A stretch of 64,000 bases of DNA from Nitrosopumilus sp. (GCA_965197525.1 OZ240211.1:1440001-1504000), one strand, 5' to 3'; shown: positions 3,344-57,516, counted from the first letter of the stretch. A program made the numbers and translations. The notes: generated by a model not told the origin, from the letters alone.

Positions 3344-3730
3344 GAAACTATGTGATTTTTTGACGTAAAACCAGACCCTTACGCAGAGCCGTGACAAGAT
3401 CATCGTCCTTTGTCTTGCATGCATGTTTGATGTTCTCATTAACATGGCAATCGCATCTGCACCCTTCCCTGACCTGCTTCCGTTGCTGTTCTTGTACAGG
3501 ATGACGCATGGCCTGATAACACCCTCTACACAGTTGTTGTGGTATTCAACGCCGCCCGTCTCCAAAAACACAACTAGGTGATCTCCCTCTCATATCAACC
3601 TCTTGTGCACTCTTACAATACTTGCAGTTGCGGTTCTTCTCAAGCCTGCCGTTCAGTGATGCGATGCAACCATCCGACCTCTTCTTTGCTGCAAGCGCGC
3701 TGCAACCTTATCAACCTGCCCATAAGCACA
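3344..3730 (-). mobile_element. IS66-family transposase C-terminal remnant with right terminal repeat
   Basis: Minus strand reads HKRLI*EGDHLVVFLETGGVEYHNNCVEGVIRPCVILYKNSNGSRSGKGADAIAMLM (IS66 TnpC 'NNxxERxIRxxVxxRKxSxGSRS' type). End GAAACTATGTGATTTTTTGACG (3344-3365) matches ends at 45999 and 56560. The higher-coordinate boundary (3730) is approximate. Confidence 0.75.
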
Positions 3731-4069
3731 AATCAAATGGGCGTGAACACTTACGAGTGTATTATACTGTCGAAATCAGATTATCTAGCCAAGATATTAC
3801 ACTAATTTTTCATCCTTGGTATGGTACGTACTGTACAAAGTTCTGTTCATTTTTACGCACAAATTATAAAAATCAATGAACAATCTACTAGTTAGATACT
3901 ACGTACTTTACTAATTAGCCATGAATTCAAGAATACAAAAGATGTTTTTGTGCTTGGTCTAAACGGATAGGTGACCTCGTACAAACATTACGTCTGGCAC
4001 TAGGCATACTGAAGACCATCATAAATATTACATCTCATATTATTGAAAACACAATATTTTTAATAAATA

Positions 4070-44250: not shown

Positions 44251-45903
44251 ATGGCATCGATTCAACAAGGACCAAATGGGCCTGTACTTGTCCTCAAAGA
44301 GAGCGCGTTACAACAAAAAGGTAAAGATGCTCAACAAAATAACATTGCAGCAGCAAAACTAGTTGCACAACTCGTTAGAAGCAGTCTTGGTCCTAGAGGT
44401 TTAGACAAGATGCTCGTTGATTCCTTGGGCGATGTAACTATTACAAATGATGGCGCTACAATTCTCAAAGAGATTGATGTTCAACATCCTGCAGCCAAGA
44501 TGATGGTTGAAATTTCTAAAACCGTAGACAACGAGGTTGGCGATGGTACTACCTCTTCTGTTATATTTGGCGGTGCTTTGCTAGCTAGAGCAGAAGATCT
44601 TCTCAACAAGGATGTTCACTCTTCAACTATAATTGACGGTTATCAGGCTGCAGCAGACAAAACTCTTGAAATCTATTCTGAATTAGCAAAAAAGATCCAA
44701 CATGACGACCGCGAATCACTATTACAAATCGCTACAACAAGTATGCAATCAAAATTAGTATCTGAGGATAGTGATGCCCTCTCAAAAATTGTTGTTGATG
44801 CTGTTTTAAGCATTGTAGTTAAGAATGGTGATAATTACGTAGTTGATCTAGATAATATCAAAGTAGAGAAAAAATCAGGCGGCTCAATATCTGATACTCA
44901 AATTATTAAAGGAATTGTTCTTGATAAAGAGATTGTTCACAGTGGCATGCCTACAAAGACGGAGAATGCCAAAATTGCATTAATCAACTCTGCATTAGAG
45001 ATTGAAAAGACCGAATTGAGTGCAGAGATTAGAATATCTGACCCAACACAGATGCAGATGTTCCTAGAAGAAGAGAATAGAATGTTAAAGACGATGGTTG
45101 ACAAATTACATGATGTGGGTGCCAATGTCCTGATATGTCAAAAAGGAATTGACGATATCTCTCAGCACTACCTTGCAAAGTATGGTATTATGGCAGTACG
45201 TCGTGTCAAAGAGAGCGATATGACAAAACTTGCAAAGGCTACAGGTGGACGAGTAATAAACAACCTTGATGATCTTACTGAAAATGATCTTGGTCATGCT
45301 GATTTGGCACATCAAAAGAAGGTTGAATCTGACAAGTGGGTTTTCATTGAAGGGTGCAAACATCCGCTATCAGTCACTTTGCTGATTCGTGGTGGTACAC
45401 AGCGACTAATTGATGAAGTTGACCGCTCTATTCATGATTCTTTAATGGTAGTAAAAGACGTTATTGAAACACCTGCAATTGTTGCAGGCGGCGGTGCCCC
45501 AGAAGCATATGTGGCATCTTTGCTCAAAAATTGGGCTGATAGCTTTGATGGAAGAGAGCAGTTGGCAATTAAAAAATATGCTGAAGCATTAGAGACTATA
45601 CCACTTACCATTGCTGAAAATGCCGGAATGGATCCCATTGATACAATGGCTAATCTGCGAGCAAAACAGAACCAAAACCAAAAGTGGACTGGAATTGATG
45701 CTAGAAATATGAAGATTGCAGATATGATGCCACTAGGCGTTATAGAACCAATTACAGTAAAAGAGCAGATAATCAAATCTGCTACAGAGGCTGCATGCAT
45801 GATACTGCGAATTGATGATGTAATTGCAGTATCGGGCGGTCCTGGAGGTGGCGGCGGTCCTGGTGCCGGTGGTATGCCGCCTGGCATGCCTGGAATGGGC
45901 TAG
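44251..45903 (+). CDS. ths: Thermosome (group II chaperonin) subunit
   Basis: [23 protein letters not shown] and GGG motifs; Gly/Met/Pro-rich tail. Confidence 0.97.
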
Positions 45904-45953
45904 TAGTAGTAGTAGTAGTAGTAATAGTAGTAGTAGTAGTAGTAGTAGTATAG
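45901..45953 (+). repeat. (TAG)n microsatellite starting at the thermosome stop codon
   Basis: (TAG)7 TAA (TAG)8 TA TAG. Confidence 0.95.
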
Positions 45954-45998
45954 TCTGATACTGTACTGGCAGTCTAACTAAACTAATTATCTATCTAG

Positions 45999-46286
45999 GT
46001 AATTGTGTAATTTTTTGACGTGATTTTTAACCTTTAAAAATAATATTTTGATCTTAGGTTATCTGAAACCACGATTACAGTGTTTAATTATGTCCAACGA
46101 CACAGTCGAAGATCACTGGAAGCATAGATATGAAAAATTAGAGCGTCAGATGAAGGAAGAGATGGCCAAGAAGACAAAAAGATAGATAAATTGGAGGAAA
46201 TGGTAAACAGGTTGGAAGGACTGCTTGCCAATGCAGTTAACCAGATAAAGACAATTACACTTGAGATGAGTCGTGCAAAAGAGGCT
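45999..46286 (+). repeat. IS66-like left end (copy 1 of a roughly 287-bp direct repeat)
   Basis: Near-identical to 55943-56227; encodes the frameshifted coiled-coil MSNDTVEDHWKHRYEKLERQ..IDKLEEMVNRLE. Confidence 0.9.
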
Positions 46287-46320
46287 GCCGCTGCTGCGGT
46301 AAATGCAAGAAATATAGTTT

Positions 46321-48009
46321 CTAATAATACTGATGCATCTGCCTCTGCTCTAACCCCTCTTGCTCAAAGTGGTTATGCGACTTGCCTCCGTCATGATGTG
46401 CATGAACTGTTCCGTCAATATGGCAATGTGTGTTATCAATCAAATCCTTGATAAACACATCATCCACGTTTAGCAGCATGTTGACAGTCTCAACTGCAGT
46501 TATCAGGACTTGCTGTTTTACAACTGCGGTCTCCATAATTTGATGGAGCGACATGTCAGACACTTTTCTTGTAGCAGCGTCTATCCCGCACCACTTGACG
46601 TTGCTATTAGACAGCGTTTGGAGTTGTGTAAATGTGTCAATTACATCCATTCCTATATTTTGGGCCAGTGTCAACGGTATCTGCTCAAGGGCGCTTGCAA
46701 ATCTTTGCATTCCGATCTGCTCCTTGCCGGGAACAGACAATGAGTGATCTTTAATCTCTTGCGCAATCAGCCATTCGACAGAGCCTGCACCGCGTACAAC
46801 AAATGGACTTTGAATAAAATTGCGTAGCACATAAAATGCGTTCAAGACATTCCTGTGGAATTCGTCAAGATAGCGCTTAGAGTTTGCCCTTAACAACAAA
46901 GTTACGGATTTTGGATTACTGTCATTGCTGCTCTCAATGAAGACCATGCTGTCACCCCCGACAGTTCTCTGATAGACATTCTTTGCAAGACCTAACTCAG
47001 CATCCGATATTTCATGTATACTCTTGCATGTTTTCGCGGCAGTTGCTTTTTCCAGCCACCACAGATCATTGTACTTTACACGACGCATCGAGATGATGCC
47101 ATGTTTTGCAAGTTTGGTTTGAACATACTCACTTACGCCCTTTCTTGACACCACTACGTTGGCTCCAGAGTCTACGATGCACCCTACTAGCGCAAGCAGG
47201 TCTGTATCCTCTTGGTCAATGAATGAGCCCATCTGGCTGGGGGAGGTAATCTCTATCTGAGATTCGGTCCTTGTCCTCATGGTCTCCAGTGGATCATTTA
47301 GCAGTAAAATTTTGGCATCAATAATGCTTTTGGGCATCGCAGAGCTGTCTATTGTCTTGTCAATGACTATGCCCCTGACTAGTTCGGTGTCAAGAATGCT
47401 ACCAAGCTTTTCCTCAATCTTTATGTCATCCACACTGATCTTTCCGTTCTGCAGATCAGCTACGCTACACACCGCATCAACGATGGTCTCAACGATTTGT
47501 TCAGGATTATCATGCAAGTCAAATATTGCTTTTCCTCCAAGACACGTAACTAGCAGACGCCTCATCATTTCCCTGTCTGTCCGGTTTGCCACCGTCTTAA
47601 TTTTTTCCAATACATTCAGGGCATATTCAAGGCTTTGCTCGTATGACTTTACAATTGCGGCTACAGGAAATTGCATTTTTAACAGCGTCTCGGCTTGGCC
47701 GATCAGACTACCTATCAGGACAGATGCGGATGTCGTGCCATCTCCAACATGGGTGTCAACGATATTTACAGCGTCCACAACAGACTTGCCTGCGGGATGA
47801 AGAACATCTGTCTTTCTTAAAAATGCACCGCCGTGGCCTGTTATCGTCTCTTCCCCAAGTATGTCAATATACATTTTTTCCATGCCGCGCGGCCCCAGAG
47901 ACGTCTTTATGATATCAGTGACAAGTCTTCCTGACATCAGGTTGTATTTTTGTGAGTCCTGCAGTCCAACACGTGAAATATCACCATCGAGAAGATCAGG
48001 ATATTTCAT
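46321..48009 (-). CDS. Divergent thermosome-like chaperonin with His-rich C-terminal tail
   Basis: TSLGPRGMEKM, GDGTTS and IDKTI motifs; ends HCHIDGTVHAHHDGGKSHNHF..MHQYY. Confidence 0.9.
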   Translation of the reverse strand: MKYPDLLDGDISRVGLQDSQKYNLMSGRLVTDIIKTSLGPRGMEKMYIDILGEETITGHGGAFLRKTDVLHPAGKSVVDAVNIVDTHVGDGTTSASVLIGSLIGQAETLLKMQFPVAAIVKSYEQSLEYALNVLEKIKTVANRTDREMMRRLLVTCLGGKAIFDLHDNPEQIVETIVDAVCSVADLQNGKISVDDIKIEEKLGSILDTELVRGIVIDKTIDSSAMPKSIIDAKILLLNDPLETMRTRTESQIEITSPSQMGSFIDQEDTDLLALVGCIVDSGANVVVSRKGVSEYVQTKLAKHGIISMRRVKYNDLWWLEKATAAKTCKSIHEISDAELGLAKNVYQRTVGGDSMVFIESSNDSNPKSVTLLLRANSKRYLDEFHRNVLNAFYVLRNFIQSPFVVRGAGSVEWLIAQEIKDHSLSVPGKEQIGMQRFASALEQIPLTLAQNIGMDVIDTFTQLQTLSNSNVKWCGIDAATRKVSDMSLHQIMETAVVKQQVLITAVETVNMLLNVDDVFIKDLIDNTHCHIDGTVHAHHDGGKSHNHFEQEGLEQRQMHQYY

Positions 48010-48192
48010 TTAACTTTCCAGAGCATATGTAGTATTAAAACATAGCAGCTGTTGGCGTCATCTAAAAAATTATAATTCATGCATAACTAAAAACTTTATA
48101 AAAATTATCTTCATTTTTTCAGGTTGCATACAGGTACAAAATGTATTTGACAAAAAAGACACACAAACAATTTTGTTGGCAGGCAGATGATC

Positions 48193-49782
48193 TCAAAGTT
48201 TGCTGTCACTCGTTATGACATCGTCAGGTCCCGGAGTGTCGGGCGTGCTAGATGCTGTAAGTCCGGAACCGTCATTCTCCTTGAAATGCTTCAGATCCTC
48301 TCCTGTGATTACGTCCTCTTCTGGAGGCACATAATCCCGTATATCGTGTCTTGCCTTTCCTGGGTACTTGTCTTGTGTCACAAGTGCTACAATCACAAAT
48401 AGCGCAATCCCGATGGCAGGTGCTATCATGGCCTCTATTCCCGCCAGCTCCTCAGGCGTGATAAAGAACATAATCAGCCTGACGGCCGAGCCTGTGATAA
48501 GGCACGCCATGGCAGCAGGCATGTTTGCCTTTTTCCAGAACAGGCCAAACGTTAGCGGTCCAAACGCTCCTGCAAGCACAATGTCAAATGCCAGTACAAG
48601 ATAAATTCCAGGGGCCGGTGCAAGATATCCGATGGTTGTCCCAGCTATCATCATCGGCACAAGTACGATACGGGTAACATTGAGCAGTTTGCGATCGCTC
48701 CAGTTTGCCTGCCCCATCCATCGTCGCCGAATTATTCTTTGCGTCAAGTTTCTTGATATGACACTTGATATTGCCAGCAGCCCTCCACTGGCAGTAGACA
48801 TGGACGCGCCGATAACTCCCATCAGTATGGCCGCCCCTATTGCAAACGGTAAGAACTGTGTGGATAGTATAGGAAGCGCCAGCGCCGGATCGGTGTCACC
48901 TGGCAGGAAATAGAATGCCACTATTCCTAACATACTTGTTGGAATTATCGTAAACATTGTCAGCATGCCTCCCATGAATGCTCCTCTTTGGGCAGTCTTG
49001 GGATTTTTGGCAGAGAATACACGTTCCATAAAGTCAAGTGCAATGATATCCCCTAGCCCCAATGCAAGAAGGGCACCCCAGTTGATTAACGCACCGTTTG
49101 CAATATCATACAGTCCTGAAAGATCTAGGAACTCTGGCGGAGCTGCACTGTATATGATGTCCCATGGAACTTCTGAAAAACCGCCAAAGAAGAATAGGAA
49201 TGCGGCCCAAAACGATCCTATGGCAAGATATACCTGAAATAGATTGGTATAAGCTGATGCAAACAGTCCGCCTGCAATTGTGTAGGCAACTATTACACTA
49301 GCTGCAATCGTTATTCCCCAAAAGTAATCTATGCCAAAAACAACCTGTAGGATAAATCCACTGGCAGCCAGATTACCTGCAACAAGAATGAGAAAGCCGA
49401 TGATCAGGAGAATGCTGGAGATTCCTTCAGCGCCGTTGCCGAATCTTCTGAAATAAAAATCAGGTAGCGTAATCATCGACATCTTGTTCAGGGGCTTGGC
49501 ATAAAATATGGCCACTATAAACAGACACACTCCAAGACCTAGTGGAACAACTGCCCCTGCCCAAAATCCAAACTCAAAGACCAGTGCGATATTTCCAAGC
49601 GACGAGTTCCCGTCTACTGCCTGAGCTGCAAGCATTGTTCCCACCATAAATAAAGGCAGACTTTTTCCTGCAACTATCAGTCTCTTGCCGCTATGTCTGA
49701 CTAGCCTGCCTGCAAATACTCCAACTACAAGTGTAATAATTATAAAAGCTGCAACTGCGATACCAAAACCGTCCAGTTCCAT
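48193..49782 (-). CDS. Sodium:solute symporter (SSS) family transporter
   Basis: About 13 hydrophobic segments; AGKSLP, TLPDF..RFG, YTIAGGLFA..YT, ERVFSAK and SMSTASG motifs. Confidence 0.9.
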   Translation of the reverse strand: MELDGFGIAVAAFIIITLVVGVFAGRLVRHSGKRLIVAGKSLPLFMVGTMLAAQAVDGNSSLGNIALVFEFGFWAGAVVPLGLGVCLFIVAIFYAKPLNKMSMITLPDFYFRRFGNGAEGISSILLIIGFLILVAGNLAASGFILQVVFGIDYFWGITIAASVIVAYTIAGGLFASAYTNLFQVYLAIGSFWAAFLFFFGGFSEVPWDIIYSAAPPEFLDLSGLYDIANGALINWGALLALGLGDIIALDFMERVFSAKNPKTAQRGAFMGGMLTMFTIIPTSMLGIVAFYFLPGDTDPALALPILSTQFLPFAIGAAILMGVIGASMSTASGGLLAISSVISRNLTQRIIRRRWMGQANWSDRKLLNVTRIVLVPMMIAGTTIGYLAPAPGIYLVLAFDIVLAGAFGPLTFGLFWKKANMPAAMACLITGSAVRLIMFFITPEELAGIEAMIAPAIGIALFVIVALVTQDKYPGKARHDIRDYVPPEEDVITGEDLKHFKENDGSGLTASSTPDTPGPDDVITSDSKL

Positions 49783-50142
49783 AATTATACATGTTGAAAA
49801 AATTATATAAATATGCGATTTTGACTGTAAAATACGTTTTATACTCTAAAAAACAATACGTATAATACATTTTTTGTTAAAATTCATGTAAATTTTACAA
49901 TATAAAGAAATTTGGATAATGGTTACGACAAGTTCAAACGCGGTTTAATGGCAAAAAAAAATAGATGTGTTTTTGAGAAATGTGTAGTATAATGATGATG
50001 CAATAAGAATGCAGTTTACATATAAGAAAACAATTCGGAGAGATAGCGGCAAAAGAAATTACCAAGCTTGTTTAAAAGATAAGACAGCTATGCTCTGCAA
50101 TCCAATTCAAAATTTTATTAGTTTGGCACTGTTAAAAACGGC

Positions 50143-50316
50143 ATGGACAAGCAATACGCTTTTGCAGTCATACTAATCATCATTGGAGTTGGGTTAAGCC
50201 AGTCCGGAACAGGCGATTCTTTTTTTATAGGTCTTGGTGTTGGAACTGTAATAATGGGTTCGTTTTGGGTATTGATCAGAATAATAAAAGAGATCAAAAA
50301 GAAAGAGCAAAAATAA
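50143..50316 (+). CDS. Small two-helix membrane protein (57 aa), not in the ORF track
   Basis: MDKQYAFAVILIIIGVGLSQSGTGDSFFIGLGVGTVIMGSFWVLIRIIKEIKKKEQK*. Confidence 0.65.
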   Translation: MDKQYAFAVILIIIGVGLSQSGTGDSFFIGLGVGTVIMGSFWVLIRIIKEIKKKEQK

Positions 50317-50358
50317 AAACAGATCGTGAAAAAAATATAAACTATAATCTGTGAATTA

Positions 50359-50886
50359 ATGCAAATGCCTGCAAAAGGATATGCCACAATTGGTTTGAAA
50401 CCTGCAATTCTAAAAAAGCTGCACGAAGTGACAGACAAAAGCTATCCTGGAATGTTCCTGCCCAGCACACTAATTATCATGATGAATGAGATCAAGAACG
50501 GGTCATACTCTGTAGAGTTGCACAACATTAGACTGGATTTGTCAGGTCACTACAACACTATAACCATCAGATTGGATGTGCAACAATGGCTAGAAGAAAA
50601 TCACAAGAAGTTGAGTGCAGAGTATGAGGAGAGATACAGGATAAAATCTTTTACAAAATTCGTGAGCTACTTTATTATCAACGCACTTGAGTCAAAGCTT
50701 AACAGTCAAAACCACACCATCAACCTAAAAGAGTCAGACTACGAATGGCTGCAAAAAGAGTACAATAAACACAAGGAAGGCATTACCGACTTTCAAGAGG
50801 TTCCAAGCTTTGACAAGTTTGCGGACATTTACATTAATAATTTGTTTGAGAAGATCAAGGCTGCAAAAAAGATCTTGACGATATAA
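50359..50886 (+). CDS. Hypothetical protein, possibly DNA-binding
   Basis: 175 aa with three similar short segments (YATIGLK, YNTITIR, NHTINLK), each followed by a helix. Confidence 0.65.
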   Translation: MQMPAKGYATIGLKPAILKKLHEVTDKSYPGMFLPSTLIIMMNEIKNGSYSVELHNIRLDLSGHYNTITIRLDVQQWLEENHKKLSAEYEERYRIKSFTKFVSYFIINALESKLNSQNHTINLKESDYEWLQKEYNKHKEGITDFQEVPSFDKFADIYINNLFEKIKAAKKILTI

Positions 50887-51258
50887 GATGTCTGATTCAG
50901 CTGGTGGTTGCAAAGACGCCAAACACAACAAAGACTGATCCGCCAAAACGCCGCCATTATTTTTTTTTTAAGAAAACCAGGGGATAAGGTACAAAAAGAC
51001 AGATGATAGATGTACAGATAGGCACAAATATCTGAAAATTTGCTAAAAAGACTGCTTGTACGCAGTAGCCAGATATATGAAAACTGTTTTCAGGACATAG
51101 TGATACCCAAACAACAAGTTTTTCAAGCAATGTCAAGTTTCAGGGTCACGTTTGATTAGATCTAAGAAGACATATGACGATTCATAGATACCAAAAATCT
51201 ACATGTGATGTTTGCGGTAACACATAGTTATGACGAGTCAAACTCCAAATAAGAAAAA

Positions 51259-51531
51259 TTAGAGTGGAACCATTGTATCAATCAATCGTGCGTTAGTGAC
51301 TTGTCCATCTTTTTCCTGCATCTCAAGGTCTACCGTATATTTTAGAGAGTTCAGCATGAAATTAACCTGAATGTCCCATGCCTCTCTAGTTCCTTTTTCA
51401 GGTACTGCAAACGTCTCGTTGACTCTAAAGTCACTTACGTCTCCATACAATGCATTGATCACTCTTTTGGATTCTCGATATATGTCGTCATTCGTACTTA
51501 CTTTTTGCATGGTTATACTACATATACTCAA
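51259..51531 (-). CDS. Small hypothetical protein
   Basis: About 83-90 aa; likely start ATG 51510 (MQKVSTNDDIYRES). Confidence 0.65.
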   Translation of the reverse strand: MSICSITMQKVSTNDDIYRESKRVINALYGDVSDFRVNETFAVPEKGTREAWDIQVNFMLNSLKYTVDLEMQEKDGQVTNARLIDTMVPL

Positions 51532-51879
51532 ATATAAAAATATTATAAGATGGAAGATGACTGAAATTTTTCAGTGTCTCCACATGCAAGAGATCAGATA
51601 TATTAATAACGCCTTTGAGGCTGCGATCAGCCAACACACGGCAGACGGTTTTGAGAGTCTTTTTTTTTGCAGTGCGCAGATATAACCTCACTGAGAACTT
51701 TAATGCCTATGCAAGATAATCTTTAACAGTATGACAAGTTTTATCAAAGATTTTTTTTTTTTGAGATTTGGGACAAGGCAAGATCTGCTTTGCATTGTTG
51801 CCGTCATTTATCTGAGAATGTCCACGGTATGCAGGTGTGTGGACAAAATAAATTGTTTGTATATCTCTTGCAGTAAGAT

Positions 51880-53133
51880 CTATAGGCCGCCAAATTTTTT
51901 TGAAAGCGGCACGCGGTTTATTTTTGCCAATTCTGCCTCAGCCTTATATTTATGATAAAGCGCAGTTTGGTTTTCAGGATCAATTGCAAGGGCCTTGTCA
52001 TACCATTTCAGAGACAGATCGTATTTTTCGAGTCGCAAGAACAGTTTTCCTTTGTAGCTTAGTGCGTATACATAATTTGGGTTAATTGCAAGGGCCTTGT
52101 CGCAGTACTCTAGTGCCTCAGTGTATTTTTTAGAATGCTCCAACAGCCATACCATGCTACACAACGCAGTAATATTTTGAGGCTCGATATCAAGTGCACG
52201 CTGACAATAAAATCTTGCAGCAGCAAAGTGCTTCATCGAAAACAGCGATACACCCTTGCTGTAAAGTGCCCGTGTGTTAGTTGAGTCATACTCTAGAACT
52301 TTATCAAAACATTTCGCGGCTTTTTTGTAAAGTCCCGTCCTGTCCAGAACCAGACCCTTGTTTATCCATGCATCAGTGCATCGAGGGTCAATCTCCAAAG
52401 CCCTGTCATAAAATACAAAGATCTCCTTGTTTGAGAATCCAGCAAAATCAAGTATCCATCCTTTGGCCACAAGCGCCTTTGTATTTTTGTTGTTTATCTC
52501 AAGAGCTTTGGTATAGAATTTTATTGCATCCTTGTGTTTTTTCTGTTTTGTGAGTTTTTGTCCTTGTTCATAGAGTTTATCAGATTGCGCGGAATCCTCT
52601 GCGATGGCACGGTTTAAAAACAATATTGATTCAGAACTCCTATCTAGCTTTCCCAATATCATGCTCTTGTTGTAAAGTGCAGAAGCGTTGTTTGGATTAG
52701 ATGACAAAATCCGTTCGGTTATTTCAAGTGCCTTGTCGTATTGGCCCAACTTGTAAAAGCACAGTCCCATCAATATCAACGAATCAGTGTATGTACAGTC
52801 AATATCAAGCGATCTCTGAAAGCAGCGTATGGCCTTGTCGTACTGTTTCGTCTTTTCAAGCGCAACCCCTTTGGCGTACAAGGTATCTATGCTTTTTGGA
52901 TCAGATGACAAAATGTGATCAAAGCATACTATGGCCTTTTGAAACTTTTCCATTTTATTGAGCGTTATGCCTTTGTGGAGATATGCCGTATGGTTGTCAG
53001 GATCAACGGAGATGGATTTGTCAAACTTTGAGACAGCCTTTTTGTAGTCATTGTAATAGATGGCAGTCAATCCCTGATTCAAGAAATACCACGAGTTCTT
53101 TGAATTTTTTAACAGCATGATTACTTGACGCAA
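51880..53133 (-). CDS. Tetratricopeptide repeat protein
   Basis: About 11 34-aa repeats of the A..NKG..L...Y..A..CFD.AL.IDP type. Confidence 0.92.
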   Translation of the reverse strand: MRQVIMLLKNSKNSWYFLNQGLTAIYYNDYKKAVSKFDKSISVDPDNHTAYLHKGITLNKMEKFQKAIVCFDHILSSDPKSIDTLYAKGVALEKTKQYDKAIRCFQRSLDIDCTYTDSLILMGLCFYKLGQYDKALEITERILSSNPNNASALYNKSMILGKLDRSSESILFLNRAIAEDSAQSDKLYEQGQKLTKQKKHKDAIKFYTKALEINNKNTKALVAKGWILDFAGFSNKEIFVFYDRALEIDPRCTDAWINKGLVLDRTGLYKKAAKCFDKVLEYDSTNTRALYSKGVSLFSMKHFAAARFYCQRALDIEPQNITALCSMVWLLEHSKKYTEALEYCDKALAINPNYVYALSYKGKLFLRLEKYDLSLKWYDKALAIDPENQTALYHKYKAEAELAKINRVPLSKKFGGL

Positions 53134-53535
53134 GTGATATTTTTATCTTTGAATCGTATATTACGGATATGGTCTCGTTCTTGACGGTTTTTACTTGATG
53201 CGGGAAAGATATGCACATGACATAATCTAATTTGAGGACAGGAGGTTGAGAGTATGCACGGTATAGATTTTTCAGACAACAAGAGCTGTCATCTAGGGCG
53301 TTGCAGGTGTTTTTGATCAGATGAAAAATGGTACGCGTTCAGGTTGTCTGAGAAAACTTTGCAGTTTAGGCGGTGTGGCATGCTTTGAGAACATTTCTAG
53401 TCTTCCCAGGCACAGTGCAAACACGTGCAAAAAACGCAATATAGGAAGTATTTTGAAAATTTTGCAGTTTAAATGCAAAACCAAAGCCTACTTGGAAGAA
53501 CGGTCTGTTTTCCAGGCAAAGGTAAAGATACAGCC

Positions 53536-54294
53536 CTAGTTCAATAAAAACAGGTCGGATTTCAGCCCAACTGTAAATATGATGTTTATTCCGACAACCA
53601 GCGTTACACCAGCTATGGCGTATCTGACATACTTGGCGGCAAGATGAATTTTTGGCAGCAATAACATAAATGAGATTCCCAAAACACCACTGGCAAGGGA
53701 CATGCCAACTATGCTGCCAATACCAAACAGGACTAGGAAGTAAACCACAATGTCAAAACTACCCATTGTGGATGCAGCAAGCGCTACAATACTGCCGCTT
53801 CCTGCAAGGCCGTGAATGCAACCTATTATGTATGACTTGTGGCCGTGCTTGTGATCCGTATTGTGCGTGTGGGGATGGGTGTGAGAGATTCCGTTTGGAT
53901 GCTTGTGTGAATGTGTATGTTTTTGCCTTAGAATGCTTTTGTTAGCGGCTGTCATAACCCCCAAAAATATCAGCATAGAACCCACTATAACTTCCGCACT
54001 CAAAAAGAAAGTGTCAGATATACTCAATGAGAGACCTGCAATCAGCAGGCCGATCAATACGATGCTGGATGTATGCCCCATTCCCCACAGCATGCCTTTG
54101 AAGGAAGAGAAGACTGTCAGGATTTTTAGATTCGTTTTTTTCGAGGTACGGTTGTTGTTATCGTTTAGAACCTGTGTAGAGACCGCACTGATATGATCAG
54201 GCTCAAAAGCATGTACCAGTCCGATCACAAGACCTGCAACGAGTATCAAGAAAGGATTGTTTGCTTGTAATATTTCAATCAACACATCAATCAT
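53536..54294 (-). CDS. Ni/Co permease, UreH/RcnA/HupN-like
   Basis: GLVHAFEPDH, WGMGH and IHGLAGSG motifs; His-rich loop HTHSHKHPNGISHTHPHTHNTDHKHGH. Confidence 0.85.
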   Translation of the reverse strand: MIDVLIEILQANNPFLILVAGLVIGLVHAFEPDHISAVSTQVLNDNNNRTSKKTNLKILTVFSSFKGMLWGMGHTSSIVLIGLLIAGLSLSISDTFFLSAEVIVGSMLIFLGVMTAANKSILRQKHTHSHKHPNGISHTHPHTHNTDHKHGHKSYIIGCIHGLAGSGSIVALAASTMGSFDIVVYFLVLFGIGSIVGMSLASGVLGISFMLLLPKIHLAAKYVRYAIAGVTLVVGINIIFTVGLKSDLFLLN

Positions 54295-54767
54295 TACAAG
54301 GTACCCCCGGACGGCGGTTCTGATTGAATGAAGGGATATTCGTTGATATGGATGGGTGCTGTGACCAAAATTGTCTTGACATGATCGTTGTAATGAGCAT
54401 CAATATTGTTGCCATCACCATCACCATCACCATCATCAGATACAGCACCTGCATCATTTGCAATAATCGTAAAGGTCAGCTCCCTTAGGCTCTCAGGAAC
54501 GCCAATCATGACTTGATGCGGCAACAGAATCTTTGGAATATGGTTTTGGATTTCATCGACTGCCTTGCCTTCATTCAGTGAGAGTATAACATATGCAACA
54601 AACAGTTCCAAGACTTGGTCTACGTTTAGCCTCATATTATTTAGAAGACTGTCTTTGATCTGCTGAACAGATGCTAGAAATATCGATTCATCAGACGCGT
54701 CATAATGAAATACCCTGATAAACGACTCGGTGTCCGGATCTCCTTGTACGGAGACTTTGATCTCCAT
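54294..54767 (-). CDS. Urease gamma-subunit-like protein (divergent)
   Basis: MRLNVDQVLEL..SLNEGKAVDEI..ILLPHQVMIGVPESLRELTF resembles UreA 'LN.PE..DGKSV.ELM..VMEGVPEM'; start and stop overlap both neighbours. Confidence 0.6.
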   Translation of the reverse strand: MEIKVSVQGDPDTESFIRVFHYDASDESIFLASVQQIKDSLLNNMRLNVDQVLELFVAYVILSLNEGKAVDEIQNHIPKILLPHQVMIGVPESLRELTFTIIANDAGAVSDDGDGDGDGNNIDAHYNDHVKTILVTAPIHINEYPFIQSEPPSGGTL

Positions 54768-55882
54768 TAACTTCTCTCAGGTATTTTAGAGGTCGAATTA
54801 CCAAAACTGTATGTGTTTCCAGTTCCCCGATAATCGTTAGGCCTTACCGGATCTCCTCCATCAAGCCCTCGCTTTGTTAGTGATAATCCAGCTAAAAGCT
54901 CTATAACCAGTCTTTGTCCCAGTCCAGATGTAATGCCTCCATTGTAAGAACTGTTATCGCTTACGTCGTATGCAGGTGAGATCTCTACTAGATCCATTGC
55001 AAATCTGTCAGGATCAAATGACTTTGATAGCAGTCGTATCATTCTAATCCCTTCCCTTGATGTAAGGCCGTTTGGCTCAGGCTCGCCGGTACCTGGTGCA
55101 TAAGCAGGATCAAAAGAGTCGATATCCCAACTAAGGTACACTGCATCAGTCCCGTCATTTGCCCTGTCTGCTATCTCTTTGGCAATGTAATCAATTCCCA
55201 GTTCTTCAACATCAAGCATTGTAAACCATTGAAAGTCTTGATCCGCCATCCATTTGTACAGATCACGGCCAGGCCAGTATCCTCTTGGACCCACTAGAGA
55301 GTAGTTTCTTCCCTTCAGACAGCCCATTTCCATTATTCTTCTGATATGTGCACCATGGTCGTATTTGAAACCTGTCAGGCCTTGGGGGGCACAATCTGCG
55401 TGGGTATCAAAGTGAATCATACCAATGTTCTTGTATTTTTTTGCAAAAGCCCGAACATTTGCATAAGTAATAGAATGATCCCCTCCAAGCATTACAGGAA
55501 TGCCATCTGCCTCTAACACCTCTTTGACCTTCAGGGTCATTCTTTTGTGCGACTCTATAACATCGCCTGGCGAGACTATGACATCACCATAGTCAACTGT
55601 TCTGAAAGTGCCAAACGGATCTGCACCCGTCTCGATATTGAACCTCTCAAATGGTGGGGAGGGCACAGTTGATGCCGCCCTTATTGCCCTTGGACCGTAT
55701 CGCGCACCAGGACGAATGGTTGTGCCAAAATCAAATGGTTCTCCGATAATTGCAACATCAGGTTTTGCCTGTAGTAACTCTTTGTGGTTTTTTATCAATG
55801 GAAGATGCAAAAATGTATTAATTCCTACAAATGGTGCAACATCTGCACCCTGAAAATCCTCACCGTAAAATTCTGCACCCAT
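54767..55882 (-). CDS. Ureohydrolase (agmatinase/guanidino-hydrolase family)
   Basis: GTTIRPGARYGP, GGDHS, FDTHAD and WDIDSFDPAYAPGTG with a full binuclear-metal ligand set; GPRGYWP subfamily motif. Confidence 0.92.
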   Translation of the reverse strand: MGAEFYGEDFQGADVAPFVGINTFLHLPLIKNHKELLQAKPDVAIIGEPFDFGTTIRPGARYGPRAIRAASTVPSPPFERFNIETGADPFGTFRTVDYGDVIVSPGDVIESHKRMTLKVKEVLEADGIPVMLGGDHSITYANVRAFAKKYKNIGMIHFDTHADCAPQGLTGFKYDHGAHIRRIMEMGCLKGRNYSLVGPRGYWPGRDLYKWMADQDFQWFTMLDVEELGIDYIAKEIADRANDGTDAVYLSWDIDSFDPAYAPGTGEPEPNGLTSREGIRMIRLLSKSFDPDRFAMDLVEISPAYDVSDNSSYNGGITSGLGQRLVIELLAGLSLTKRGLDGGDPVRPNDYRGTGNTYSFGNSTSKIPERS

Positions 55883-55942
55883 TTTAACAGAGATTGTAAG
55901 CTCTTTTGATTATTAAGTATTGCATGTAAAATACGCATTTTT

Positions 55943-56560
55943 GTAATTGCATAGTTTTTTGAAGTGATTTTTAACCTTAAATAATATTTTGATCTTAGGT
56001 TATCTGAAACCACGATTACAGTGTTTAATTATGTCCAACGACTCAACCGAAGATCATTGGAAGCATAGATATGAAAAATTAGAGCGTCAGATAAAGGAAG
56101 AGATGGCCAAGAAGACAAAAAGATAGATAAATTGTAGGAAATGGTAAACAAGTTGGAAGGACTGCTTACCAATGCAGTTAACCAGATAAAGACAATTACA
56201 CTTTAGATGAATAGTGCAAAAGAGGCTTCATTCTTGCCCTCATCAACAGGCTCAAAGGAGAGAAATACAAGCATTGCAACAGGATGCTCAAGAGGATCAG
56301 AAGAGAGAAAGGCCACCTGTTTACGTTACTTGAGGTTGAAAGAATGAGTGACATGACAACTCTGTAGAGAGGGAGAGGGGGCATCAGACAGTGCGTCATA
56401 CTGCGCAATAACAGCTATGGGAGCAGGTCCGAAGAATGGGCATCGGCCATAGTAGTGTTGATGAGTGTAAAACAAACCTGCAAGGCAAAGAACAATAATT
56501 TGTTCGATGATGTAATGCGCATGAATTTGTTCAAAACGTGTCAAAAAACTACCTAGTTGC
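55943..56560 (+). mobile_element. Mini-IS66 (618 bp): left end fused to transposase C-terminal remnant and right end
   Basis: 55943-56227 repeats the left end. 56230-56540 reads NRMLKRIRREKGHLFTLLEV..GIRQCVILRNNSYGSRSEEWASAIVVLMSVKQTCK, homologous to the 3344-3730 remnant. Confidence 0.85.
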
Positions 56561-56628
56561 CTATCTAGTTATTTCCCTACACTAATATCACTTTCCTGAA
56601 AGCTTAACTATTCTGATCTCATAATTTA

Positions 56629-57516
56629 TTGTTGTTGCACAAAATTGGCATCGATTTAGGTGGTACAAAGACTGAGGCAATCTTGCTTGATGAAGATTTC
56701 CGCGTCATAAAGAGAAAACGCGTTCCCACACCTCAAAACGACTATCAAAAGATTCTTGACTCTATCTCATCGTTAATCTCTGATGTATCAAATGACATTG
56801 ATGAATTCTCATTAGGCATCTGCACCCCTGGTGCAATATCTAAACGCACTGGACTAGTTAAAAATAGTAACACAAGATGTCTTATTGGTAGACCGCTCAA
56901 AGAGGATCTAGAAGAAACACTTGAACGCAAAATATCCATGGAGAATGATGCTAATTGCTTTACGATGGCAGAATCTATACTAGGTGCAGGAACCGGCTTT
57001 GATCTCGTCTTTGGAATCATTCTTGGAACCGGTGTCGGGGGCGGTATCGTAATTGACAAAAAACTTTATTCTGGCAGAACTAACATTGCAGGTGAATGGG
57101 GTCATCATACATTGCACCGTAACGGTAATCCTTGCTACTGTGGAAATACCGGATGTGTGGAAACATATCTTAGTGGTCCCTCTCTTGCACGCAGGTGGAC
57201 TGAATTAACTGGAAGGACTCAAACCATGCCTGAAATCATCTCTTACGTCAATAATAACACTGATAATGCGATTAACAAACAATGGAGAGATGAATTTCTT
57301 ACAAACTTTGGGTATGGTGTTGCAAACGTAATTGATATACTAGATCCTGACATAGTTATTCTGGGTGGCGGTCTCTCAAACATTGATTTTTTATACACAG
57401 ACGGTGTGAAATCAGTTTACAACAAGGTATTCTCAGATTCAATTAATACACCTATACTTCCAAATAAACTAGGTGATTCTGCAGGAGTTTTTGGTGCTTG
57501 CATGCTTGAAGGTTGA
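56629..57516 (+). CDS. ROK family sugar kinase
   Basis: GIDLGGTK, ENDANC, ILGTGVGGG, AGEWGH..CYCG..GCVE and LGGGLSN motifs. Confidence 0.92.
   Translation: MLLHKIGIDLGGTKTEAILLDEDFRVIKRKRVPTPQNDYQKILDSISSLISDVSNDIDEFSLGICTPGAISKRTGLVKNSNTRCLIGRPLKEDLEETLERKISMENDANCFTMAESILGAGTGFDLVFGIILGTGVGGGIVIDKKLYSGRTNIAGEWGHHTLHRNGNPCYCGNTGCVETYLSGPSLARRWTELTGRTQTMPEIISYVNNNTDNAINKQWRDEFLTNFGYGVANVIDILDPDIVILGGGLSNIDFLYTDGVKSVYNKVFSDSINTPILPNKLGDSAGVFGACMLEG

Follow-up and report, generated by a model that had tools for sequence, protein, structure and literature searches.

Mobile insertion cassettes, of which MIC231 of Bacillus cereus is an example, carry passenger genes between inverted repeats (IRs) derived from an insertion sequence (IS), encode no transposase, and are moved in trans. 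Insertion sequences of the IS66 family, as described in ISfinder, duplicate 8 bp of their target and have IRs beginning GTA(A). Here we describe a unit of 10,562 bp that recalls both, found in the single-contig, 2.21-Mb genome of Nitrosopumilus sp. (GCA_965197525.1), an ammonia-oxidizing archaeon (AOA). We analyzed 64,000 nucleotides of this genome (OZ240211.1, positions 1,440,001–1,504,000; hereafter the window), and feature coordinates are counted within the window unless a genome position is named. The unit occupies the spacer between a housekeeping thermosome gene and a ROK-family gene, is bounded by remnants assigned to an IS66-family element, and carries a module of metabolic genes. Our best reading, which we consider probable, is that the unit moved as one with transposase supplied in trans, so that it would represent a non-autonomous composite transposon or large mobile insertion cassette.

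Anatomy of the unit and identity of its ends

The unit lies between two copies of the octamer CTATCTAG and consists of a 5′ IS remnant (left end 1, LE1), 9.6 kb of cargo, and a 618-bp internally deleted mini-IS in which a second left end (LE2) is fused to a right end (RE). The left outer IR (IRL; GTAATTGTGTAATTTTTTGAC, 45999–46019) begins directly inside the left octamer, and the right outer IR (IRR; GCAACTAGGTAGTTTTTTGAC on the other strand) ends at 56560, directly inside the right octamer; the two match at 15 of 21 positions. Given the base composition of the genome (39.6% GC), the chance of an 8/8 match between octamers at two fixed positions is 2.1e-5. The mini-IS itself (55943–56560) is bordered by GCATTTTT on the left and CTATCTAG on the right and therefore has no target-site duplication (TSD) of its own, which leaves a single TSD, with IS-type IRs at the outer ends, bracketing the entire unit. 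An earlier note on this stretch, made from the sequence alone, had proposed a perfect 8-bp TSD directly outside imperfect 21-bp IRs, as well as a second left end fused to a right end in a 618-bp mini-IS lacking its own TSD, and these flanks bear out both proposals. Its description of the IRs as starting with GTAA was correct for the IRL, and also for the IRR of an independently assembled copy of the unit described below (contig L079), and incorrect for the outer right IR here, which now starts with GC.

The octamer nearly repeats an internal IRR sequence, which reads CTACCTAG here and CTATCTAG in both a truncated IS66 copy at 2.17 Mb in the genome and an intact relative (L088). The result is a 12-bp near-tandem, CTACCTAGTTGC / CTATCTAGTTAT, within window positions 56540–56572, which could be chance or could reflect a preference for IR-like targets.

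LE1 is 82.5% identical over positions 1–314 to an intact IS in a metagenome contig (L089), breaks off between 46312 and 46319, and at the protein level matches residues 11–76 of the IS66 transposase of another Nitrosopumilus genome (G393), a match that runs past the deletion junction of the mini-IS. LE1 is therefore the remnant of a longer copy, and its length is about 314–321 bp rather than the 288 bp given in the earlier note. The two left ends are 94% identical (45999–46286 versus 55943–56227). In LE1, the part of the gene for the transposase N terminus has lost 1 bp and is frameshifted, and because all left-end copies in this genome and in L079 carry one common 1-bp frameshifting deletion relative to intact elements, both ends of the unit derive from a copy that was already defective. 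Alignment of the mini-IS to L089 gives two blocks (2410–2694 and 3598–3918), which indicates an internal deletion of about 900 bp of the transposase gene. The RE of the mini-IS shares 79% DNA identity with the 3′ end and IRR of the truncated copy at 2.1747 Mb, and the translation of RE corresponds to residues 377–466 of the 481-aa G393 transposase (53% identity, E=9e-20). The IRL starts GTAATTG; the IRR, which reads GTAACTAG in L079, L088, and L089, has mutated here to GCAACTAG, with GC instead of GT at its start.

Intact elements with similar IRs, whose existence the earlier note had suggested checking, were found both in G393 and in metagenome assemblies. G393 has two 1641-bp copies, 99.4% identical to each other, with 44-bp IRs starting GTATCTGTGTAGTTTTTTGA, one 481-aa DDE_Tnp_IS66 (PF03050) protein each, and perfect 8-bp TSDs (CTTTAATC and AAAAAACA). 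Closer intact relatives (L088–L091, from ENA metagenome assemblies) are about 1.5 kb long and encode transposases of 464–471 aa that share 89–92% identity with the truncated copy of the present genome, one protein cluster alone holding 112 member sequences; their IRs (IRL GTAATTGTGTAGTTTTTTGAA, IRR GTAACTAGGTAGTTTTTTGAC) are almost identical to those in the window. All these intact relatives, at 1.5–1.64 kb, have a single open reading frame (ORF) and lack tnpA and tnpB, a form which we take to be that of the ISBst12-like subgroup of IS66. Judged by the PF03050 relatives, the RE translation, and the alignment to L089, the ends of the unit genuinely belong to a single-ORF IS66-family element, in agreement with the family named in the earlier note.

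The earlier note was also right that the unit lacks a transposase: it contains frameshifted N- and C-terminal transposase fragments only, and its cargo ORFs belong to other families. Indeed, no intact IS66 transposase was found in the whole genome. Besides LE1 and the mini-IS, the IS66 content of the genome comprises one 5′-truncated copy (transposase gene at 2,174,7xx–2,175,8xx; PF03050, E=4e-37), a 146-bp solo left end at genome position 86,390, and a transposase fragment at about 3357–3712 of the window (minus strand) that has two in-frame TGA codons and matches G393 residues 363–479. Weak PF03050 matches at 2.003 and 1.960 Mb are IS6/IS240-type transposases, not IS66. The truncated copy (genome 2174700–2176300) abuts, on the opposite strand, a HicA/HicB-like toxin–antitoxin pair recognized from ORF translations. 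In a genome from another genus (G054, L064:10021–11106), the cargo-type gene cluster has within it a distantly related IS66-like transposase (25% identity over residues 106–471).

Scans with left-end patterns found no second copy of the unit at another site in GTDB, metagenome, or viral contigs. A 40-nt pattern had no match in GTDB genome contigs and a 24-nt pattern none in viral contigs; the latter pattern detected a 59-bp end remnant in a contig (L084) of a Nitrosopumilus metagenome-assembled genome (MAG). Three further metagenome matches to it (L081–L083) have 28 nt in common and no IS features, and we attribute them to chance. These intact, truncated, miniature, and solo-end forms together define a Nitrosopumilus IS66-family element that can be used to seek further IS-mediated rearrangements.

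Insertion, age, and route of arrival

In 21/21 other Nitrosopumilus species (all those that yielded the ROK locus), 50–80 bp separate the thermosome gene from the directly neighboring ROK gene, and none has the cargo there. On this comparison of gene order, the unit is an insertion relative to congeners, and to its right the part of the ancestral spacer beside the ROK gene is still recognizable. The sequences immediately outside the unit do not recur in the genome, except for a TAG microsatellite; the mobile unit is therefore no larger than the interval from IR to IR. This (TAG)n microsatellite (45901–45950) starts at the thermosome stop codon, is common to L079, whose contig ends within it, and is absent from other species.

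L079, a 10,815-bp contig from the independent assembly of a different sample, is colinear with 45942–56625 through both junctions at 95–97% identity. Its left junction has CTATCTAG and its right junction CTACCTAG, the start of its IRR (GTAAC) is intact, and its LE2 has a 68-bp insertion. Among sequencing runs, three under a single organism label contain 79–93% of the words sampled from the left junction, one labelled as a viral metagenome contains 45%, and a further one 32%; we base no conclusion on these figures. Relative to L079, four-fold degenerate sites of four cargo genes have diverged by 8.4%, LE2 by 10.5%, RE by 13.2%, and LE1 by 3.7%. Because the element occupies this very site in L079 as well, the insertion is older than the split between the two organisms, and its ends are decaying. 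The insertion is thus old, fixed, and vertically inherited since, and the unit is a decaying fossil, not an active cassette. Of the differences that separate LE1 from LE2, only about 4–5 are older than the split, at which time the two were about 98.5% identical over ~290 bp. LE1, which adjoins the stop codon of an extra thermosome gene in the cargo, changes at less than half the neutral rate; it may be constrained by a function of its own, for instance that of a 3′ or regulatory element.

Transposition of the unit is the most economical account of this structure. In the order of events that we propose, two copies of an already frameshifted single-ORF IS66-family IS, native to Nitrosopumilus, would have flanked an AOA accessory cluster in a donor. 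The left copy would have lost everything beyond about 315 bp, bringing the IRL beside the extra thermosome gene's stop codon, and the right copy would have lost about 900 bp internally, leaving the 618-bp mini-IS. The transposase, supplied by a sister IS that had stayed intact in that cell, would have acted on the outermost IRL and IRR, and the 10,562-bp unit would have entered the thermosome–ROK spacer, duplicating the 8-bp target CTATCTAG. These steps would have preceded the split from the L079 organism and been followed by vertical inheritance and decay of the ends.

Several points weigh against this reading. The unit has one known insertion site, common to this genome and L079, and its mobility thus rests on only a single event. 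The spacer in this lineage contains about 120 extra bases, including the TAG microsatellite, that are absent from other species, so the exact pre-insertion site is unreadable from congeners, and the exact empty-site pattern (CTAATTATCTAYCTAGTTATTTCCC) had no match in JGI metagenome contigs; of the empty site that the earlier note had proposed to look for, we therefore have the thermosome–ROK junction without cargo in 21/21 congeners and not the exact allele. Matching TSDs were absent around three of the intact relatives (L088–L090) at their own sites. To our knowledge, neither the transposition chemistry of single-ORF IS66 elements nor their tolerance of a 10-kb unit has been described. Finally, the structure fails to separate transposition of the unit from recombination into a resident IS. 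The earlier claim that the whole unit moved as one holds to the extent that the TSD brackets the unit and that this is the most economical account; recombination would have left the same structure.

In the main alternative, that of recombination, an IS, either mini or full-length, was already present at CTATCTAG with its own TSD, and incoming IS-flanked cargo recombined homologously with it, by a single crossover of a circle of LE plus cargo or by a double crossover in LE and RE, yielding the order LE–cargo–LE–RE. The product and its TSD would be identical to those observed, the direct repeats LE1 and LE2, as similar as they were at the time of the L079 split, would have been ample for homologous recombination, and no active transposase would have been necessary at acquisition. 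Moreover, the context of the cargo cluster differs in each Nitrosopumilus genome examined, where it lies elsewhere and without IS ends, which argues that the cargo was acquired by more than one route. This alternative, however, takes two events at a single site and does not dispense with an IS-flanked cargo in the donor, and we found an IS at this spacer in 0/21 congeners and no contig with the mini-IS alone at this site. We regard this route as rather unlikely, while allowing it some weight.

A second alternative, that the cargo is ancestral at this locus and was flanked by two independent IS insertions whose octamers match by coincidence, is very improbable. The octamer CTATCTAG is not rare (28 copies in the whole genome) and resembles the internal IRR sequence CTACCTAG, but the adjacency of thermosome and ROK genes in 21/21 congeners, with the cargo of relatives located elsewhere, contradicts such an origin, as do the probability of an octamer match at the exact IR boundaries (P about 2e-5), the lack of a right end on LE1, and the lack of an own TSD on the mini-IS. 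An assembly artefact is scarcely credible: although misjoins often arise at IS repeats, L079 is an independent assembly that is colinear through both junctions and flanks, and the genome is a single 2.21-Mb contig.

Cargo genes and their distribution

Comparisons with Pfam, NCBIfam, and PDB identified the cargo as an eight-gene metabolic module, the metabolic character being as the earlier note had it (Table 1).

Table 1. Window coordinates of the unit, its parts, its cargo genes, and the flanking genes
Feature	Coordinates	Strand	Basis or remark
Housekeeping thermosome gene (left flank)	44251..45903	+	ROK directly next in 21/21 congeners
Left 8-bp TSD, CTATCTAG	45991..45998		Identical octamer in contig L079
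LE1, 5′ remnant of roughly 1.5-kb single-ORF IS66-family element	45999..46314	+	IRL 45999–46019
Divergent third thermosome (group II chaperonin) paralog	46321..48009	-	Pfam Cpn60_TCP1, E=1e-125
529-aa sodium:solute symporter (SSS)	48193..49782	-	Single-copy; distinct from 676-aa SSS beside ureC
Conserved 175-aa protein, no family	50359..50886	+	No Pfam/NCBIfam match
Conserved 90-aa protein, no family	51259..51531	-	71–79% identical homologues, 10/12 cluster loci
TPR-repeat protein	51880..53133	-	Co-located with ureohydrolase in other genomes
NicO-type nickel/cobalt permease	53536..54294	-	Pfam NicO 28.7 bits, cut-off 27.7
157-aa UreA-like protein	54294..54767	-	Weak urease-gamma similarity; acidic DGDGDGDG loop
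371-aa arginase-family ureohydrolase	54767..55882	-	Pfam Arginase, E=4e-80; putatively of the guanidino-acid / guanidine hydrolase branch
Mini-IS, 618 bp	55943..56560	+	LE2 55943–56228 fused to RE 56229–56560; IRR 56540–56560
Right 8-bp TSD, CTATCTAG	56561..56568		L079 has CTACCTAG, one later change
ROK-family sugar kinase/regulator gene (right flank)	56629..57516	+	Family search; synteny

The best solved relatives of the ureohydrolase are a guanidinobutyrase (3nio) and the guanidine hydrolases 7esr/7oi1 and 9fek, which are Synechocystis and related "agmatinase 2" enzymes (E=1e-47 to 1e-50), making it a candidate member of the Ni-dependent GdmH/GbuA branch of the arginase family. It scores below the NCBIfam agmatinase cut-offs, and the NicO and UreA-like genes are adjacent to it. 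The UreA-like protein matches the NCBIfam urease gamma family at E=3e-4, below the cut-off, and PDB entry 4fur at E=0.0015. The extra thermosome shares 38–40% identity with the two housekeeping copies, the stop codon of its gene is 1 bp away from the junction between LE1 and the cargo, and its C-terminal tail is His-rich (HCHIDGTVHAHHDGGKSHNH...) in place of the usual Gly/Met-rich tail, which suggests a metal-linked role together with the neighboring nickel permease and hydrolase. Homologues of the 175-aa protein, 51–73% identical, adjoin the ureohydrolase in 10/12 loci and accompany the cluster in other genera. On these family assignments, the cargo would be a probably nickel-linked ureohydrolase module for guanidino compounds with its own transporter and chaperonin. 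It would be a candidate organic-nitrogen pathway in AOA, for which a 2024 survey reported no recognized guanidine-degradation genes (PMC11410670).

The genome has its own urease elsewhere, with ureC and the 676-aa SSS gene at 425–427 kb and ureEFGD at 257–260 kb. Adjoining the urease structural genes is a gene for a TnpB-like 412-aa protein with a Cas12f1-like TNB domain (L086:7572–8810, genome about 428.1–429.3 kb), with a ParB-like gene next in line. The cargo NicO gene also has a relative at genome 2061501–2062278 (L087:2502–3279), a NicO-like sequence of 69% DNA identity that contains no ORF of at least 110 aa and is probably a decayed pseudogene.

The ureohydrolase was found at 79–94% identity in 73/201 Nitrosopumilaceae genomes, spanning 18/27 genera, and in only 3/16 sampled congeners; the remaining cargo genes occur with it in an order that varies. 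Judged by this distribution, the cargo is a conserved yet patchy accessory module of Nitrosopumilaceae, and in other genomes urease genes are often its neighbors. The nearest non-identical copy, in a 299-kb contig (L080), is 79–86% identical in DNA and colinear over exactly 46320–55946, and the IS ends of the unit therefore bracket precisely one complete module. The L080 copy has no IS ends and occupies a different locus: at L080:1667–13019, the module plus three small ORFs stands directly beside tRNA-Ser(GCT), and the corresponding stretch here (genome 1009929–1010331) is empty but for the tRNA. Looking for hallmarks of an integrative element around the L080 copy, we found neither an att-like direct repeat nor an integrase. 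The ureohydrolase protein is 99.2% identical between this genome and L080, compared with 71–95% for its cargo neighbors and 67–96% for flanking housekeeping genes, which indicates unusually strong purifying selection on the ureohydrolase.

A broader proposal would be that IS66-type non-autonomous cassettes recurrently shuttle the module between Nitrosopumilaceae genomes, with LE1 co-opted here as a 3′ or regulatory element. If true, recurrent shuttling would explain why the ureohydrolase, at 79–99% identity across 18 genera, nonetheless occurs in only about one-third of genomes and in varying contexts. We consider this proposal improbable.

Comparison with known systems

In marine AOA, accessory genes for nitrogen sources such as urea and similar compounds have a patchy distribution, and the vehicles that carry them are rarely identified. 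This locus offers a concrete case in which the footprint has been kept, consistent with an IS-bounded cassette that delivered a complete module of eight genes to a housekeeping spacer and later became fixed. In the library that we searched, we found no paper on an IS-bounded cargo element in AOA or on this cluster as a unit.

The closest described gene content is that of the urea islands of marine AOA. A hadal AOA MAG has an extra thermosome near an SSS gene and urease (PMC7265257), and the cargo described here resembles these islands in combining an extra thermosome with an SSS gene; in two of the genomes that we compared (G053 and G081), a cargo-type cluster is contiguous with urease genes. 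The module here differs from those islands in having no urease and in being bracketed by IS ends.

With regard to the ends, the Nitrosopumilus elements are like ISBst12-like IS66 elements in their DDE_Tnp_IS66 protein, 8-bp TSD, IRs of about 20–44 bp, and single ORF, and they differ from canonical three-ORF IS66 elements, in which tnpA and tnpB lie upstream of tnpC, in lacking both of the former genes. Unlike intact single-ORF elements, both copies in the unit are remnants without a usable transposase gene.

With regard to the architecture, the unit is like MIC231-type cassettes in having IS-type IRs around passenger genes, no transposase, a TSD of the length typical of its IS, and, as we infer here, dependence on a sister IS. 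It differs in the family of its ends (IS4 in MIC231, IS66 here), in its archaeal host, and in the size of its cargo (about 9.6 kb and at least eight genes, compared with 1–3 kb), and its extra internal left end shows an origin from two IS copies, not one. In that respect it is closer to compound and pseudo-compound transposons (Tn5, Tn10, Tn9, and IS26-bounded units), in which two IS-derived segments likewise bracket the cargo; the IS segments here are in direct orientation, and, as in compound transposons, the limits of the unit are set by its outer ends and a single TSD. The alternative of recombination into a resident IS has its own counterpart in the translocatable units of IS26. The unit differs from compound transposons in that both of its IS copies are defective, which makes it non-autonomous, and in that its cargo is nitrogen-metabolic and not resistance. 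By analogy, then, the type of element is already known from bacteria, as non-autonomous composite transposons and mobile insertion cassettes; what is new is the IS66 subgroup of its ends, its host, an archaeal ammonia oxidizer, the size and nature of its cargo, and its preserved footprint.

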